From an uncultured Acidobacteriaceae bacterium (GTDB lineage: Bacteria > Acidobacteriota > Terriglobia > Terriglobales > Acidobacteriaceae), in assembly GCA_963727295.1 (NCBI GenBank), contig CAVSFL010000009.1, positions 93,014-157,013 on the forward strand: a stretch of DNA of 64,000 nt. The letters are read 5' to 3'. Shown one piece after another: positions 14,857 through 29,829 of this stretch. The position numbers were made by a program, and so were the translations under genes. Under the pieces are notes generated by a model, which saw only the letters and a program-made list of their open reading frames with translations, was not told the origin of the DNA and ran no database searches. Within the stretch, counting starts at the first letter, position 1. The number at the start of each line of letters is the position of its first letter.

Positions 14857-17800
14857 GTGAAGACGCAAACAGATTTAATGTCCATCCACCACAAATCCGA
14901 CGCCGAGATCATCGCGACCACGCACAACACGGCGCGGTTCTTCACCGAGCATCGTCAGGTCGCCACCATCTTGTTGCTCGCGACCTTCGCCTGGGGCTTG
15001 TACGGCTATCACAACATGCCCAAGCGCAAGGATCCGGACATTCCCGTGCGCGTCGCCATGGCTCAATGTCAGTGGCCGGGCGCCACGGCGGAACAGGTGG
15101 AGCAACTGGTCACACGGCCGATGGAGACGGCCGCTACCCAAAACACCACCATCAAGCCCCACAGCCCGTCCAACTTCGGCATTCGCTCGATGAGTTTTCC
15201 CGGACTCGCGGTCGTCTACATCCAGCTTGACGACAACGTCAAAGACAAGCAGAAAGAATTCAGCGACATCAACCTGAAGATGAATCAGGTGAATCTGCCG
15301 CGCGGCGCCGGGCCCATCCAGTTCAACAGTAACTTCGGCAACACGGCTGCGCTGATGCTGACCGTCGCCAGCCCGATCGCCAATCCAACCGAGATCGCGT
15401 TGCGCGACAAGTCCAATTCGCAAGGCCATTGAAGAGACCCGCTCCCATTTGGCCAGGAACGCGCCGCAACCACGCGTCAGTGTCATCTACGCATTTCCGC
15501 TGACGGTAGCTGCCGGCCCGGTGCGCACCAATTTCGAAATGATTGCCAACATCGGCGAACGCAACGGTACCCTCAGAGACCTGCATTTCTTCGACGGTCC
15601 GGGCTACGTCGGCCTCGACGCCAGCACCTCGTTCGACGATGAGACCATCCGTCAGCGCGGCCGACAGCTCATCCGGAACAATCTGCAGGCCTCGGAACTC
15701 TATCCTGACGCGTGGCAGCCGGCCATCATTCGCAATCCCGCCGATACCGAAGCCGAGCTGGCTAAGGTCGCCGGCGCAAAATACTCCTATCGCCAGCTCG
15801 ACAACTACACGAATCTGATTCAGCGCACCTTGCAAGGCGTGCCGGAAACGTCGACCGTCTCGCGCTCCGGTGTGCTGCCGGAGCAGATTTATCTCGACTA
15901 CTCCCAGCAGCGTCTGGCGCAATACGGATACGATCCTTCCAAGCTCAAAGACATCCTCAACGCGCAAAACATCACGCTGCCGGCCGGCTCGCTGGAGGTC
16001 GGGCCGCAGGATCTGGTCATCAATCCCTCCGGCCTGTTCACCAACGCTCCGCAGATCGGCGACGTCATCATCGGCGTTTCGTCCTCGAACAGTCCGGTCT
16101 ACCTGCGCGACCTGGTCGACATCTCGCGCACCTATCAAAGCCCGCCGACATTTCTGAATTACCTCACCTGGCAGGATAAAGACGGAACCTGGAACCGCAG
16201 CCGCGCCATCTCCGTCGCTATCAACATGCGCTCCGGACAGCAGATCGATCTCTTCGGGCAGCATGTAAAGGAGAAGCTAGCCGCTCTCGCGCCCTATTTC
16301 CCGGGCGATCTCGTCATCGTGCCCACCTCGAGCCAGCCGGTGCAGGTGAAAGAGCAGATCGAGCTCTTCATGGACGCGCTCTACGAAGCGATCGGCCTGG
16401 TCGTTATCGTTTCCCTGCTCGGCTTCTGGGAGTGGCGCTCCGCGGTGCTGATGGCATTGTCCATCCCGATCACGCTGGCGATGACTTTCGGCGTCATCTA
16501 CGTTCTCGGCATCGACATCCAGCAGGTATCGGTGGCTTCGCTCATCATCGCGCTGGGCTTGCTGGTCGACGATCCCGTCGTTGCGGGCGACTCCATCAAG
16601 CGCATGCTCGCCGAAGGTCATCCGCGAATCGTCGCGCCCTGGCTCGGCCCCACCAAGATCGCGGTCGCCATCATGTACGCGACGATCACCAACATCGTCG
16701 CCTACCTGCCGTTCCTGATGATCACCGGTACCACCGGCGAGTTCATCTACAGCTTGCCGGTGGTGATGACGGTAGCGCTGGTCTGCTCGCGCCTCGCGTC
16801 GATGACCTTCATTCCCTTGCTGGGCTATTACCTGCTCCGGCCCGGCAAACCAGAACCGGCGATCGAAGAGCGTCGCAGCAAGGGCTTCACCGGCAAATAT
16901 GCCGCCGTGGCCAAGTTCGCGATTGAACATCGCTGGAAGTTCACCATCGGTTCGCTAGCGTTCCTGGTGCTCGGCGCATTTATGTTCTCGCAGTTGAAGA
17001 CATCGTTCTTCCCTGACGACGTGCAGTACTGGTCCTACATCGATGTCTGGCTGCCCAACGACGCCAACTTCGACGCCACTAATCGCGCCGCACAACAAGT
17101 CGAGCAGATCGTCCGCGAGCAAGCGGATGTCTACGGTAAACAACACCCGGAGAAAGATGGCTCGCCCTCGCATATCCTGCGCTACGTCACCACCTGGGTC
17201 GGCGGTGGAAGTCCTCGCTTCTGGTTCTCGGTCTCGCCGCAACCTAAGCAGCTAAATTATGCGCAGGTGCTGGTACAGCTGAGCAACAAAGAGATCACGC
17301 CGGACTTCGTCAACCAGGTGCAGCCTGTCCTGACCGCCAAAGTGCCCGGCGTGCGTTGCGATTATCGCCAGCTGCAGACCAATCCCATCAACTATCCAGT
17401 CGAGATTCGCGTGGTCAGCGAAGCCGATGTCAGCTCGAATCCCGAGCGCAGTGCGGCCGATATCGCCGAGTTGCGCAAGATCACTTCGAAGGTGGAAGAG
17501 ATTGTCCGCTCCGCTGCCGAGGCTCGCCGTGTACGCAACGAGTGGATGAAGGACAGCTTCCAGGTGACGCTGCAGGTCGATCCCGATCGCGCCAATCTGG
17601 CGGGAATTACCAATCTGGATGTGGCGAACTCCGCCACCGGCGCCATGAGCGGCACCACCGTCACTACGCTTCAGGACGGAGATCAGAATATTCCAGTCGT
17701 CGCGCGCTTGAAGATGAATGAGCGGGCGCGGCTCTCCGACATTCAGAACCTTTATGTCTACTCGTCTTCGTCCGGCGACAACACCAAGATCCCGCTGGTC

Positions 17801-18583
17801 CAGATCTCCGACATCGATAAGAGCATGATGACCCAGCGCATCATTCGTATCGATCAGTTCCGCGAGATGTCAATTTTCGCCTTCCCTGCCGGCAACCACC
17901 TCGCATCGGAAATCACCAGCGTCGTTCTGCCCAAGCTCAAGGAATTTGAAAAGACGATGCCGCCGGGATACAAGATCGAAATCGGCGGCGAGTACAACAA
18001 GCAGATCGACGGCTTCCGCAATCTCACGTTAGTCCTGGCCATCTCAGTGGCGATGATTTACCTGGCGCTGATGTTCCAGTTCAACAATGCGGTCAAGCCA
18101 TTCCTGGTCTTCGCCGCCGCGCCTTATGGCGTCGCCGGAGCCATCTACGGGCTGTGGGTGATGCACACTTCGTTCGGCTTTATGGCATTCCTCGGCATCG
18201 TCAGCCTCATCGGCGTGATCGTCAGCCACGTCATCGTGCTCTTCGATTTCATCGAGGAGATGCACGCCAAGGGCGAACCGTTCGAAGAAGCTGTGATCGA
18301 TGCCGGCATCATCCGCTTGCGCCCGGTGATGATCACCGTCAGCGCAACGGTGCTGGCTCTATTCCCGCTCGCGATGCACGGTGGCCCGCTCTGGCAACCC
18401 CTCTGCTACGCGCAGATCGGCGGGTTGACGGTCGCAACCTTCATTACTCTGCTGATGGTTCCGGTGCTGTACTCGATCTTCGTTCTGGATCTAAAAATCC
18501 TCACATGGGACACGAAGGAAGAGTCGCAAATCACTGAAACGCAGCAGGTTACTTTAACCACCCCAGCAGCGTCGCATGATTAA
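14857..18583 (+). pseudogene. RND (AcrB/HAE-type) inner-membrane efflux pump; +1 frame break near 15412-15416
   Basis: ORF 14857-15432 (N-terminal ~190 aa, ending ...PTEIALRDKSNSQGH*) and ORF 15449-18583 (the remaining ~1040 aa) belong to one pump. Frame 2 read back from 15449 gives IRKAIEETRSHLARNAPQ. One extra base in GACAAGTCC-A-ATTCGC joins the halves. Confidence 0.85.
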
Positions 18584-18680: not shown

Positions 18681-19178
18681 ATGAAACACTTGCTTGCTCT
18701 CGCACTTCTGTTTTTGTCCCTGAAAGCCGTTGCGCAGAACGAAGCCGAAACCAAGGCGATGTACCCTCGCATGGCGAAGGCTCAGGCATATGAGGCCAAA
18801 GGTTTCCACCCTCTCGACTGTTTCGCTGGTCAGGTCAGGATTCGTGGGAAGCGGCTCTCGCGGCAATCGTTTATTGTATTCCGACCCGACGGGGACATGA
18901 AATGCTGCGGTGAGAAGGCGGGTGTCGGGCGCACCGACACGCACGGGCACTTCCTCTTAGAGCCGCTCCGTGAAGGCGAATATTTCGCGGTGTTCGATAG
19001 CAATGGCACCCAGTACACAGCCAGTTTTGCTGTCATTGACAGCTACCAACGATGCGACGGGACGCACGTGGAATTGAACTTTACGGCAGCCAATCAATGT
19101 TCGTTACAAACGTACGCCGACGTTGACTACAACGAGAGCGACTGCTCAGAGGACGATGCTGCTTGCTATCGCAAGTAG
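18681..19178 (+). CDS. Secreted Cys-rich protein with carboxypeptidase-regulatory-like segment
   Basis: Signal peptide MKHLLALALLFLSLKAVAQ. GRTDTHGHFLLEPLREGEYFAVF resembles CarboxypepD_reg. The protein has 8 Cys. The surrounding DNA looks more AT-rich by eye. Confidence 0.5.
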   Translation: MKHLLALALLFLSLKAVAQNEAETKAMYPRMAKAQAYEAKGFHPLDCFAGQVRIRGKRLSRQSFIVFRPDGDMKCCGEKAGVGRTDTHGHFLLEPLREGEYFAVFDSNGTQYTASFAVIDSYQRCDGTHVELNFTAANQCSLQTYADVDYNESDCSEDDAACYRK

Positions 19179-19398: not shown

Positions 19399-20391
19399 AT
19401 GGGCGATACGCTCCAATTCGTGGTTCACTACGGCTATGCCTTGCTCTTTGGCTGGGTACTGCTGGAGCAGGGCGGCTTGCCCATCCCCGCAACACCTCTG
19501 TTGCTGGCCGCCGGAGCTCTCGCCGGACAGGGCCGCATGCACCTGGCGCTGGTGATTCTTGTCGGTACCGCGGGCTGCATGGGCGCTGATATCTTCTGGT
19601 ATTCGTTTGGCAAGCGCCGCGGAGCAGTCGTACTGAACCTTCTCTGCCGCATCGCGTTGGAGCCCGATTCCTGCGTCCGCCGCACCGAAACCCGCTTCAG
19701 CAATTGGGGCGAGCGCACGCTCCTCATCTGCAAGTTCGTTCCTGGATTGAATACTGCCGCTCCTGCGTTGGCGGGAATGGTGAATCTCCCGTACGGGCGC
19801 TTCCTGCTTTTCGACCTGATTGGCGGATTGCTGTGGACAACCGGTTATTCCCTGCTCGGCTTCCTCTTCAGCAAGCAACTCGACATTATCGCCCGCGACG
19901 CTCACCTGCTCGGCGGCTGGCTGCTGGTCTTGTTCCTGACCGGAGTCGTCGCTTATGTGCTCCATCGCTGGCGCGAGCGGGAGCGCTTCATCAGGCAGGT
20001 GAAGGGCGACCGTATCACTCCCGATGAATTGAAGCATCAGCTGGAGTCGGGTGAGCGTCCGGTGATCATTGACCTGCGCCATCCCTTGGACGTGCTGACC
20101 GATCCGCGGACCTTGCCGGGCGCATTGCAGATCGCGCCTGAAGATCTCACCGCGCGTCGCGGCGAGATCACGCGGGATGGCGAAATCGTTCTCTTCTGTA
20201 CTTGACCGAACGAAGCCACCAGCGCCCGTGTGGCGCTGCAACTCCGGAAGATCGGAATTCGTCGCGTGCGCCCGCTGCTGGGTGGCTTCCACGAGTGGAA
20301 GAGTCTCGGATTTCCGCTGGTGGAGATTAGTCCTGCGGAGATCGATTCCGGAATCTCGACTCGGCACCTTCCCGCCGAAGGCCGCGCGTAA
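19399..20391 (+). CDS. DedA/VTT-family membrane protein fused to a C-terminal rhodanese domain, interrupted by in-frame TGA at 20203-20205
   Basis: ORF 19399-20205 has the DedA motif FVPGLNTAAPALAGM, then the rhodanese N-half (ITPDELK...VIIDLRHP...EIVLFCT*). The same frame continues for 61 codons to TAA 20389-20391 and encodes PNEATSARVALQLRKIGIRRVRPLLGGFHEWKSLGFPLVE. Confidence 0.75.
20220..20238 (+). promoter_or_regulatory. Hairpin 14 nt downstream of the in-frame TGA (candidate SECIS-like element)
   Basis: Perfect 7-bp stem CAGCGCC / GGCGCTG with loop CGTGT. No covariance model was run. Confidence 0.3.
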
Positions 20392-20408
20392 AGTCATCCA
20401 GGGCATTC

Positions 20409-20628
20409 GGTAGAGCTGGCGTTTGGTAGAGCTGGCCTTCGGTAGAGCTGGCCTTTAGGCCAGCGTCCAGCCGTTGTTCCTTATCCGAGTCGGCTTCAGC
20501 CGACGGCACCACAGTCTTGTCGATTCTTAGACGCTTCCAAAGGCATGCCCAATCCAGCGATGGGTGGAGCACGCCTTCAGGCGTGCATAAAAACTCTTGA
20601 TCTAATGAGCGGCTTTAGCCGCTGCGGT
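20409..20628. repeat. REP/BIME-like cluster with a 16-nt-period triplication of the GGTAGAGCTGGC head
   Basis: GGTAGAGCTGGC occurs at 20409, 20425 and 20441. Other modules: GGTAGAGCTGGCCTTTAGGCCAGCG (20441-20465), GAGTCGGCTTCAGCCGAC (20487-20504), GGGTGGAGCACGCCTTCAGGCGTGC (20562-20586) and GAGCGGCTTTAGCCGCTGCGG (20608-20628). Confidence 0.85.
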
Positions 20629-20630
20629 AA

Positions 20631-28592: not shown

Positions 28593-28782
28593 ACTCTGCC
28601 CTTCAGCACACCCACTGCCTGCCGGATGTCCTTTACGGCGATTCTGGCAGGTCGAGCCTGCGCACTAGCGTCCAATGCGTCGTGCAACCGCGGAAAACCG
28701 TTCCGTTGATTCGGCCTGGGAAGGCTTATCTGCTGTGGAATACCTATAATAAACGTTGCAGGGCTTTCACTGAATAAGGTAC

Positions 28783-29829
28783 GTGCCCGATCGGTTTACT
28801 GAGGTTAAGACGTTGGAATTCAAGGAACGCTACTCCCGCCAGGTTCTTTTCCAGCCCATTGGCGAGGAGGGACAGCAGAAATTAGCCAAAGCTCGTATCG
28901 CCGTGGTTGGTTGCGGCGCTACCGGCTCGGCTCTGCTCTCGCTGCTGGCGCGGGCAGGCGTCGGATATCTGCGCGTCATCGATCGTGACTACGTTGAGCC
29001 CAGCAATCTGCAGCGGCAGGTGCTCTTTGATGAAGCCGACGCCGCCGAATCGCTGCCCAAGGCGATCGCCGCAGCTCGTAAGGTCCAGTCCTTCAATTCG
29101 GAGATCACGGTTGAGCCGCACGCCGCCGATCTCACGCCGGACAACATCGAAGAACTGCTCAGCGATGTCGAGATCGTCCTCGACGGAACAGACAATTTCG
29201 AGACGCGATACCTGATCAATGATTTTGCCGTGAGCCGGAAGCTGCCCTGGATCTACTCTGCCGGCGTCGCCAGTTATGCGGTCACCATGACGATCCTGCC
29301 GGGCGAGACGGCTTGCCTGGCTTGCATCTTTCCGGACTCGCCGCGCGGCATTGTCGAGACCTGCGACACATCTGGCATTCTGAACTCAGCGGTAAACTTT
29401 GTGGCTTCGATCGCAGCGACTGAGGCGATCAAACTTGCTATCGGCGCACGCGACAAGATTCGCCGTACCCTGTTGTCGTATGACGTGTGGACGAACGACT
29501 ATGCCTCAGTCAACGCAGATAAGCCTCGTCCTGGCTGCCGCGCCTGCCAGGAGCAGGATTTCATTCATCTCGCCGGCGAGGGACGCCCTCATATTTCGCT
29601 GTGCGGGCGCAATTCGGTGCAGATTCACGAGCGTGAAAGGCCAATCGATTTCGCCGAGATCACACGGAGATTGTCGCCGCACGGCTCTGTTCGGCACAAC
29701 GAGTTCATTCTGAAGTTCTGGCGCGACCCGTATGAGATGACGCTGTTTCCCGACGGCCGCGCGATTATCAAAGGCACAACCGACACAGCCATCGCGCGAA
29801 GCCTATATGCGCGCTACGTGGGATCTTGA
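28783..29829 (+). CDS. ThiF/MoeB/HesA-family E1-like adenylyltransferase with ~90-aa C-terminal extension
   Basis: RYSRQ..., the nucleotide loop VVGCGATGS, two CxxC pairs (CLAC, CRAC), and an extra C-terminal domain ISLCGRNSVQI...LFPDGRAIIKGTTD. Confidence 0.8.
   Translation: MPDRFTEVKTLEFKERYSRQVLFQPIGEEGQQKLAKARIAVVGCGATGSALLSLLARAGVGYLRVIDRDYVEPSNLQRQVLFDEADAAESLPKAIAAARKVQSFNSEITVEPHAADLTPDNIEELLSDVEIVLDGTDNFETRYLINDFAVSRKLPWIYSAGVASYAVTMTILPGETACLACIFPDSPRGIVETCDTSGILNSAVNFVASIAATEAIKLAIGARDKIRRTLLSYDVWTNDYASVNADKPRPGCRACQEQDFIHLAGEGRPHISLCGRNSVQIHERERPIDFAEITRRLSPHGSVRHNEFILKFWRDPYEMTLFPDGRAIIKGTTDTAIARSLYARYVGS

Follow-up and report, generated by a model that had tools for sequence, protein, structure and literature searches.

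An in-frame UGA very probably read as selenocysteine in a DedA-rhodanese fusion protein of Acidobacteriota

In a 64-kb stretch of DNA from an uncultured Acidobacteriaceae bacterium (contig CAVSFL010000009.1; the whole 64,000-nucleotide stretch is referred to here as the window), an open reading frame (ORF) at positions 19399-20205 starts with ATG, runs for 268 codons and ends in the residues ...GEIVLFCT, followed by TGA at 20203-20205. The same frame stays open beyond this TGA for a further 61 codons (PNEATSARVALQLRKIGIRRVRPLLGGFHEWKSLGFPLVE...), to a TAA at 20389-20391. The product joins a membrane domain of the DedA/VTT type to a rhodanese domain, and the question raised by the locus is whether the TGA terminates this protein or is decoded, and if decoded, as which residue. 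An earlier interpretation made from the letters of the DNA alone (the sequence-only reading) had proposed a codon for selenocysteine (Sec), followed by a hairpin serving as a bacterial selenocysteine insertion sequence (SECIS) and with cysteine at the same position in related proteins. Comparison of the locus with its relatives strongly supports that proposal, and we conclude that 20203-20205 is very likely a selenocysteine codon and that the gene 19399-20391 would encode a selenoprotein of 330 residues. The features of the locus are as follows.

19399-20391, + strand: predicted complete selenoprotein gene, 330 codons (268, the putative Sec269 and 61), then TAA

19483-19860, + strand: core of the DedA/VTT domain, Pfam PF09335, residues 29-154, 47.1 bits against a cut-off of 33.9

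20017-20304, + strand: rhodanese domain, Pfam PF00581, residues 207-302, 33.6 bits against a cut-off of 22.2

20197-20199, + strand: TGT codon of Cys267, probable canonical catalytic position, first loop residue after the central strand

20203-20205, + strand: UGA very likely read as selenocysteine, Sec269, in the loop C-T-U-P-N-E; TGA in 76 loci against TGC or TGT in 48, with purifying selection downstream

20220-20238, + strand: putative bacterial SECIS hairpin, with its 5' arm at 20220-20226, apical loop at 20227-20231 and 3' arm at 20232-20238

20389-20391, + strand: TAA, the predicted true stop of the selenoprotein; the C-terminal tails of relatives are of similar length (...AAEG[PS]A)

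In the read-through protein both the PF09335 and the PF00581 matches are above the Pfam gathering threshold. The rhodanese match straddles the TGA and covers profile positions 1-101 of 102, so that the remainder of the rhodanese fold is encoded after the TGA, as the sequence-only reading had stated; its description of the end of the ORF, the 61-codon open frame and the hairpin coordinates was likewise borne out in every particular. In an AlphaFold (AF2) model, helices run from residues 2-24 (H2-24) through 158-203 (H158-203), and the membrane region remains helical as far as about residue 203. The DedA/VTT domain is connected to the rhodanese domain by a long helix, part of which, HRWRERERFIRQVKGDR, is strongly basic. 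The homolog P0056, which has cysteine at the position of the TGA, is 330 residues long, the same length as the read-through product. A codon-usage scan of all TGA junctions in the window identified the one at 20203 as the only junction with coding potential on both sides and a long downstream frame, and revealed no other selenoprotein gene among them.

The column occupied by the TGA was followed at the DNA level in the window and in 136 related loci drawn from collections of genomes and metagenomes. It is TGA in 76 loci, TGC in 35 and TGT in 13, and could not be resolved in a further 13, for example at contig ends. The TGA forms are ∼45-96% identical to the window protein, and in every TGA locus the frame stays open to the end of the rhodanese domain, following the pattern PNE[AV][TS]SARVAL..RPL.GG...W. 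The column thus shows the Sec/Cys pairing (cysteine in 48 loci, TGA in 76) that the sequence-only reading had proposed to look for, with the TGA shared by relatives. The TGA is also kept in all four sister contigs that were fetched, which come from different samples and are 99.4-99.8% identical to the window, and the exact 268-residue product of the window is found on at least 22 contigs.

Protein databases present a truncated picture of the same family. Of the 120 homologs that matched best (64-94% identity), coverage of the read-through query stays at or below 81% in 119, and 112 have a length of exactly 268 residues. P0056 alone among them reads through, with cysteine at the column (LFCT-C-PNESTSAR...LLGGYHEW). 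An exhaustive search of 1.84 billion protein representatives, from which the top 150 clusters at 50% identity were inspected, gave 46 representatives that end exactly at hCx and 52 that read hCxCPxE. The sequence C-[TS]-C-P-N-E, which the sequence-only reading had given for related fusion proteins at this point, is indeed that of the Cys-form homologs. Two further full-length proteins, P0246 and P0311, have Sec-type sequence downstream (…TSAR[LV]A…) with glutamate (YCS-E-PNEATSAR) or serine (YCS-S-PREFTSAR) at the column; the departures may be genuine replacements, artefacts of gene calling or mistakes in the sequence.

Selection on the protein was estimated from pairwise proportions of nonsynonymous and synonymous differences (pN/pS, Nei-Gojobori type) among the 68 non-redundant TGA loci, which we refer to as Sec forms. 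The pN/pS ratio is 0.35 over codons -20 to -1 relative to the TGA, 0.065 over codons +1 to +5, the most conserved of all, and 0.40 over codons +13 to +30, where the Cys forms give 0.35. The values of 0.40 after and 0.35 before the TGA therefore correspond to equal protein selection on both sides, and this pattern of substitution indicates that the codons downstream of the TGA are translated.

The hairpin that follows the TGA consists of the stem CAGCGCC, the loop CGUGU and the stem GGCGCUG, with seven perfect base pairs and a minimum free energy (MFE) of -12.5 kcal/mol; 14 nucleotides separate the UGA from the start of the hairpin and 21 from the start of its loop. In the published model of the bacterial SECIS (bSECIS), the apical loop has 3-9 nucleotides and the upper stem 4-16 bp (PMC13188914, Fig. 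2 legend), a G is found in the first two loop positions, the UGA is 16-37 nucleotides from the loop and the MFE is -7.5 kcal/mol or lower (PMC13188914). The window hairpin lies within all four of these published constraints, having a loop of 5 nucleotides (CGKGY), a stem of 7 bp, a spacing of 21 nucleotides and an MFE of -12.5 kcal/mol, and the earlier proposal that it is a bacterial SECIS is supported by this comparison. The same properties extend to the relatives: loop position 2 is G, followed by G or U, in 68/68 Sec forms, and the MFE is -7.5 kcal/mol or lower in 96% of them.

Codon usage within the hairpin departs sharply from that of its surroundings. Codons +6 to +11 (Ser-Ala-Arg-Val-Ala-Leu) show near-zero synonymous variation in the Sec forms, being AGC in 67/68, GCC in 68/68, CGG or CGT only, GTG in 63/63, GCG in 67/68 and CTG in 56/66. 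Synonymous entropy is ∼0 at codons +6, +7, +9 and +10, compared with 1.8-2.2 bits at nearby codons of the same genes and 1.1-1.7 bits at the hairpin columns of the Cys forms. The synonymous proportion pS behaves in the same way, falling from ∼0.68 in the flanks to 0.139 in the Sec-form hairpin, whereas the Cys forms have 0.575 at the hairpin columns. Base pairing is specific to the proposed register, in which 97.4% of the cells are paired, compared with no more than 63.5% in any slid register, and the closing pair varies among C:G (48), G:C (5), U:G (2) and G:U (1), with 9 unpaired. All seven pairs are formed in 58/68 Sec forms and in 2/48 Cys forms, for which the mean MFE is -12.1 and -5.9 kcal/mol respectively. 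The encoded protein differs as well, reading ATSARVAL in the Sec forms and ETAVRMAL or VTAARLAL in large Cys clades, a difference which suggests that the RNA element shapes the amino acid sequence. These comparisons indicate that the hairpin is constrained as RNA, beyond the needs of coding, where the codon is TGA.

Two residues before the TGA column lies a cysteine, Cys267, which is found in 116/116 sequences (68 Sec forms and 48 Cys forms), and all 68 Sec forms read L[FY]C[TSA]U. The sequence-only reading had placed the Sec at the catalytic cysteine on the basis of its spacing of 26 residues to the GG motif, as from Cys65 of E. coli GlpE. The spacing itself stood when counted on the GlpE sequence: Ser at +6, Gly at +17 and GG at +26 from the Sec are at the same distances as from GlpE Cys65. 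The placement probably does not hold. Alignment of the family profile with GlpE by hhalign (95.4% probability) pairs Cys65 with Cys267, and two of three alignments with structures in the Protein Data Bank (PDB), those with BpPRF and 3tp9, put the catalytic cysteine on Cys267; the ungapped HMMER alignment to 6mxv alone places the Sec on it. In the AlphaFold model of the Cys form, which has a mean pLDDT of 90.9, the central strand comprises residues 262-266, a six-residue loop (C-T-C/U-P-N-E) residues 267-272, and a helix begins at 273. Foldseek matches this model to solved rhodanese domains with TM-scores up to 0.85 and root-mean-square deviations (rmsd) of 1.6-1.9 Å. Since Cys267 opens the loop in both the alignments and the model, Sec269 is the third loop residue of a C-x-U motif. 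A Sec at the canonical catalytic cysteine, suggested by the spacing, is disfavoured by hhalign and the modelled secondary structure, and Cys267 is most likely in the canonical catalytic position with Sec269 as loop residue 3.

Several points weigh against a selenocysteine codon and have to be set beside this evidence. The Sec probably lies outside the canonical nucleophile position. Long open frames are frequent in this GC-rich DNA. The fold of a 66-nucleotide segment has z = -0.73 relative to shuffled sequences, which is not significant alone, and because of this value the single-sequence fold is no evidence on its own. Since the six core pairs (20221-20226 with 20232-20237) are essentially invariant across the Sec forms, true covariation is confined to the closing pair. 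At least six hairpin pairs are also present in 8/48 Cys forms, so that TGA genes are not strictly alone in having the hairpin. A search of the whole window with Rfam at gathering thresholds returned neither a SECIS nor any other match, and with E ≤ 10 on 20150-20330 the sole match was a spurious microRNA, a null that is uninformative because bacterial SECIS elements are family-specific. Finally, no selA, selB or selD (tblastn with the E. coli proteins) and no tRNA-Sec (ARAGORN) was found in the window and the related loci, 0.93 Mb in all, flanking sequence that consists of small fragments of many genomes and is not informative on any whole genome; the window itself has no tRNA of any kind by ARAGORN. 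Taken in isolation the TGA, the open frame after it and the hairpin are within chance, and the weight comes from the comparison of relatives.

Decoding of the UGA as selenocysteine would be expected to follow the known bacterial mechanism. The hairpin at 20220-20238, lying inside the coding sequence, would act as the SECIS; SelB-GTP carrying Sec-tRNA(Sec) would bind to it while the ribosome is paused at the UGA, and Sec would be inserted, followed by translation of the 61 codons to the TAA at 20389-20391. When selenium is absent, the product would be a truncated protein of 268 residues that lacks half of the rhodanese fold. The involvement of SelB and tRNA-Sec is proposed by analogy with this mechanism, and there is a record of Sec use in Acidobacteria (PMC1794560, Table 2).

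The alternative that survives best is that the UGA is recoded to a different residue (Cys, Ser or other), by a non-canonical suppressor or by near-cognate read-through stimulated by the hairpin. Conservation downstream shows that translation continues and is silent on the identity of the residue, and the Sec machinery was not found in the window and the 0.93 Mb of fragments. Suppression could come from an acidobacterial allo-tRNA with a UCA anticodon or from a selC*-type tRNA-Cys acting with a SelB paralog: allo-tRNAs occur in Acidobacteria as possible nonsense suppressors, and selC*/SelB* systems of other phyla may insert Cys at UGA (Mukai et al., PMC5389517). However, selC* is not reported from Acidobacteria in that work, the column pairs specifically with Cys (48 loci), the hairpin agrees with the SelB-type bSECIS model on four of four criteria, and the family that the protein matches best is a curated selenoprotein family sharing its CxU motif. 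General suppression is further disfavoured by the window being without other genes that contain in-frame TGA codons. Recoding to another residue keeps a small probability because Acidobacteria carry allo-tRNAs (PMC5389517), one far below that of selenocysteine.

Still less probable is that the TGA is a conserved codon at which translation truly ends, with a functional product of 268 residues made up of DedA and a partial rhodanese stub, and with the 61 codons kept for some other role, such as a separately initiated peptide (from GTG at 20230) or a regulatory or terminator RNA. All gene callers and the NCBI annotation do end the gene at this point, with the product named VTT domain-containing protein, and a GTG-initiated ORF of 53 codons occupies 20230-20391. 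Termination here would, however, break off the rhodanese fold partway through its active-site loop, and the Cys homologs are continuous single proteins. The downstream pN/pS is the same as the upstream in the same frame, and conservation is strongest (pN/pS 0.065) over the five codons that follow the TGA, which precede the GTG. The GTG moreover sits inside the hairpin, with no ribosome-binding site evident. The two alternatives offered by the sequence-only reading, that a nonsense mutation has left a pseudogene or that the TGA arose in sequencing or assembly, gain some colour from the errors that assemblies contain and from the disruption of a neighbouring RND-transporter gene in the window and in sister long-read assemblies, but they are effectively refuted by the identical TGA in 76 loci and four independent assemblies of the same species, by the purifying selection on the downstream frame and by the nature of the neighbouring lesions, which appear to be indels and not substitutions.

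We return to selenocysteine as the decoded residue. A few Cys forms that have ATSAR-type sequence also keep the hairpin. In two of these, L056 (3799-3858) and L011 (5799-5858), the hairpin is intact and the column is TGT; in a third, L044 (5793-5852), the top pair is compensated, from C:G to G:C; and in L009 (2580-2639) the hairpin is present as a decayed copy. These hairpin-bearing Cys forms appear, from their sequences, to be snapshots of a single-base interconversion between Sec and Cys, followed by decay.

Rhodanese domains that contain Sec have been described, and a 2026 catalogue of prokaryotic selenoproteins lists five forms, of which form 3 is NF041203, with the motif CxU (PMC13188914). 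Forms 1, 2 and 4 have UxxS or UxxG motifs, and form 5, TsoB (NF045694), resembles a rhodanese/DsbD fusion with the motif UxxxxU (PMC13188914). The best NCBIfam match of the window protein is to NF041203, 'rhodanese_LYCAU, rhodanese-related (seleno)protein', with residues 202-307 aligned to profile positions 19-123 of 126. The score, 73.5 bits with Cys substituted for Sec, is below the curated equivalog cut-off of 115 bits, and membership of NF041203 was rejected on this basis. The two families share the rhodanese fold, the h-h-C-x-U motif (LYCAU in NF041203, L[FY]C[TS]U here) with the Sec two residues after an invariant Cys, and the existence of Sec/Cys-paired homologs. They differ in that NF041203 is a single-domain profile of 126 positions whose match is confined to the C-terminal third of the window protein, in which the module forms the end of a 330-residue DedA/VTT fusion, and in that the loop continues here as the family-specific PNEATSAR, which also encodes the SECIS. 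A homolog search with the rhodanese module alone returned mostly fragments, and showed that Cys versions of the module exist as a free-standing protein of 114 residues (P0138) and with a short membrane anchor (P0126, P0175).

As in the window protein, the Sec of catalogued forms 1, 2, 4 and 5 is in the rhodanese active-site loop, and TsoB is likewise a fusion, although its partner is DsbD-like and not DedA/VTT. Their motifs (UxxS, UxxG and UxxxxU) differ from the C-x-U seen here, where the Sec is at loop position 3, and none of the models for these four forms was among the NCBIfam matches at E ≤ 0.01. The closest solved folds are the membrane-anchored YgaP of E. coli (5hbo), the fusion of persulfide dioxygenase with rhodanese BpPRF (5ve3) and CoA-persulfide reductase-rhodanese proteins (3icr, 3nta), with rmsd of 1.6-2.9 Å and E-values from 3e-6. 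In each of these the rhodanese domain handles sulfur as one module of a protein that is larger or membrane-bound, but they have a single catalytic Cys in a loop of the C-R-x-G-x-R type, no Sec, and partners other than DedA.

The hairpin has the general form of the SECIS elements of the E. coli fdhF/fdnG type and of the bSECISearch consensus, in that it is located within the coding sequence directly 3' of the UGA and has a small loop with G followed by G or U; its spacing and stability are inside the limits of the bSECISearch model. It has no sequence resemblance to the E. coli fdhF/fdnG elements. The E. coli SECIS has a bulged U, and its minimal element is 11 nucleotides from the UGA; the window hairpin is without a bulged U and has a 14-nucleotide spacer between UGA and stem.

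The N-terminal 200 residues match the DedA/VTT family PF09335 above threshold, and there are weak NCBIfam matches to DedA (PRK10847) and UptA, at 58 bits against 236 and 48 against 250 for the respective equivalog models. UptA is an undecaprenyl-phosphate transporter of the DedA/VTT family. The characterised DedA proteins (E. coli DedA and UptA) match the N-terminal part alone of the window protein. Two selenoprotein reviews that were searched contain no mention of DedA, VTT, SNARE-associated proteins, PF09335, Acidobacteria or soil, and no link between DedA/VTT proteins and selenoproteins, or Sec-containing DedA protein, was found in the literature searched. We conclude that the family is very probably a bacterial selenoprotein family of the rhodanese CxU type, with a DedA-fused architecture, outside NF041203 itself. 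The mechanism would be the canonical one and proteins of this kind are already known; the novelty lies in the DedA-fused family, in how common it is among soil bacteria and in the systematic errors of its annotation.

All-against-all clustering of the flanking ORFs gave lineage-level synteny alone and no conserved operon partner, and since no conserved partner gene was found the gene looks free-standing. One sub-clade of Sec forms (13 loci) has a thioredoxin-fold gene of the CusF/SCO1-SenC/AhpC-TSA type directly upstream on the same strand, and 11 loci that overlap this set have a gene for glycogen phosphorylase downstream, on the opposite strand; the loci with this synteny are L001-L007, L070-L072, L077, L078, L081 and L084. 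The SCO1/thioredoxin-fold gene is absent from the clade of the window. Immediately upstream of the window gene is an ORF of 165 residues (18681-19178, + strand) with a hydrophobic, signal-like stretch at its N-terminus and several Cys residues, for which no Pfam match is recorded; it is kept in 4/4 sister contigs and is not a conserved neighbour in other clades.

Downstream, positions 20392-20630 are intergenic between the convergent DedA-rhodanese and TamB-like genes. This region contains three tandem 16-nucleotide units, GGTAGAGCTGGCSTTY, at 20409-20456 and short GC-rich hairpins with TTYA loops (GCTGGCC-TTTA-GGCCAGC, GTCGGC-TTCA-GCCGAC, CACGCC-TTCA-GGCGTG and GCGGC-TTTA-GCCGC). These repeats and hairpins may be REP-like or terminator elements.

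Farther upstream, an AcrB-type RND transporter gene at ∼14877-18583 (+ strand) encodes 1044 residues in the window from a TTG start at 15449 and 1234 residues in the sister contig L052, and is divided between two ORFs in both L053 and L054. The breaks in the frame resemble assembly indels unrelated to the TGA, and are probably what the sequence-only reading had noticed as other lesions of the window. MoeB is a catalogued selenoprotein family (PMC13188914), and a ThiF/MoeB-like gene is located at 28781-29829 (+ strand; PF00899 in L052). Its TGA at 29827 is followed by only 23 further open codons and was taken as an ordinary stop rather than a Sec codon.

The architecture of the protein suggests how the putative Sec might be used. 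An inner-membrane domain of the DedA/VTT type would be joined at its C-terminal end to a rhodanese domain that is probably cytoplasmic, a location suggested, under the positive-inside rule, by the strongly basic segment that follows the last membrane helix. The Cys267-x-Sec269 pair would most likely form a selenenylsulfide or carry a persulfide or selenopersulfide, and the Cys-x-Sec motif may thus represent a membrane-tethered redox or chalcogen-transfer centre. A more speculative proposal, which we regard as unlikely but worth stating, is that the DedA domain and the Cys-x-Sec rhodanese work as one unit, in which a chalcogen is brought across the membrane and trapped or reduced at the cytoplasmic selenenylsulfide centre; candidate substrates would be selenite, thiosulfate or a persulfide carrier. 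The attraction of such a transport-coupled role stems from the DedA protein of Ralstonia metallidurans, which is implicated in selenite uptake according to a review (PMC11422209). If true, this would be a dedicated transport-coupled system for handling selenium or sulfur that is itself selenium-dependent.

The SECIS proposed here is unusually clean, in that it constrains codons and amino acids (ATSARVAL) alike, and the hairpin relics in recent Cys converts make the family a good system for studies of Sec/Cys interconversion. It is a large and diverse family of soil Acidobacteriota and their relatives, whose members are annotated in truncated form, as 268-residue VTT/DedA proteins, at NCBI and JGI. 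Within the top 150 representatives this concerns at least 46 clusters at 50% identity, in which the annotation would conceal both the rhodanese domain and the dependence on selenium. To the rhodanese selenoproteins, catalogued in five forms, the family would add an architecture fused to DedA, and the link between a DedA membrane protein and a Cys-x-Sec centre would offer a lead to DedA function and to the uptake and trafficking of chalcogens.

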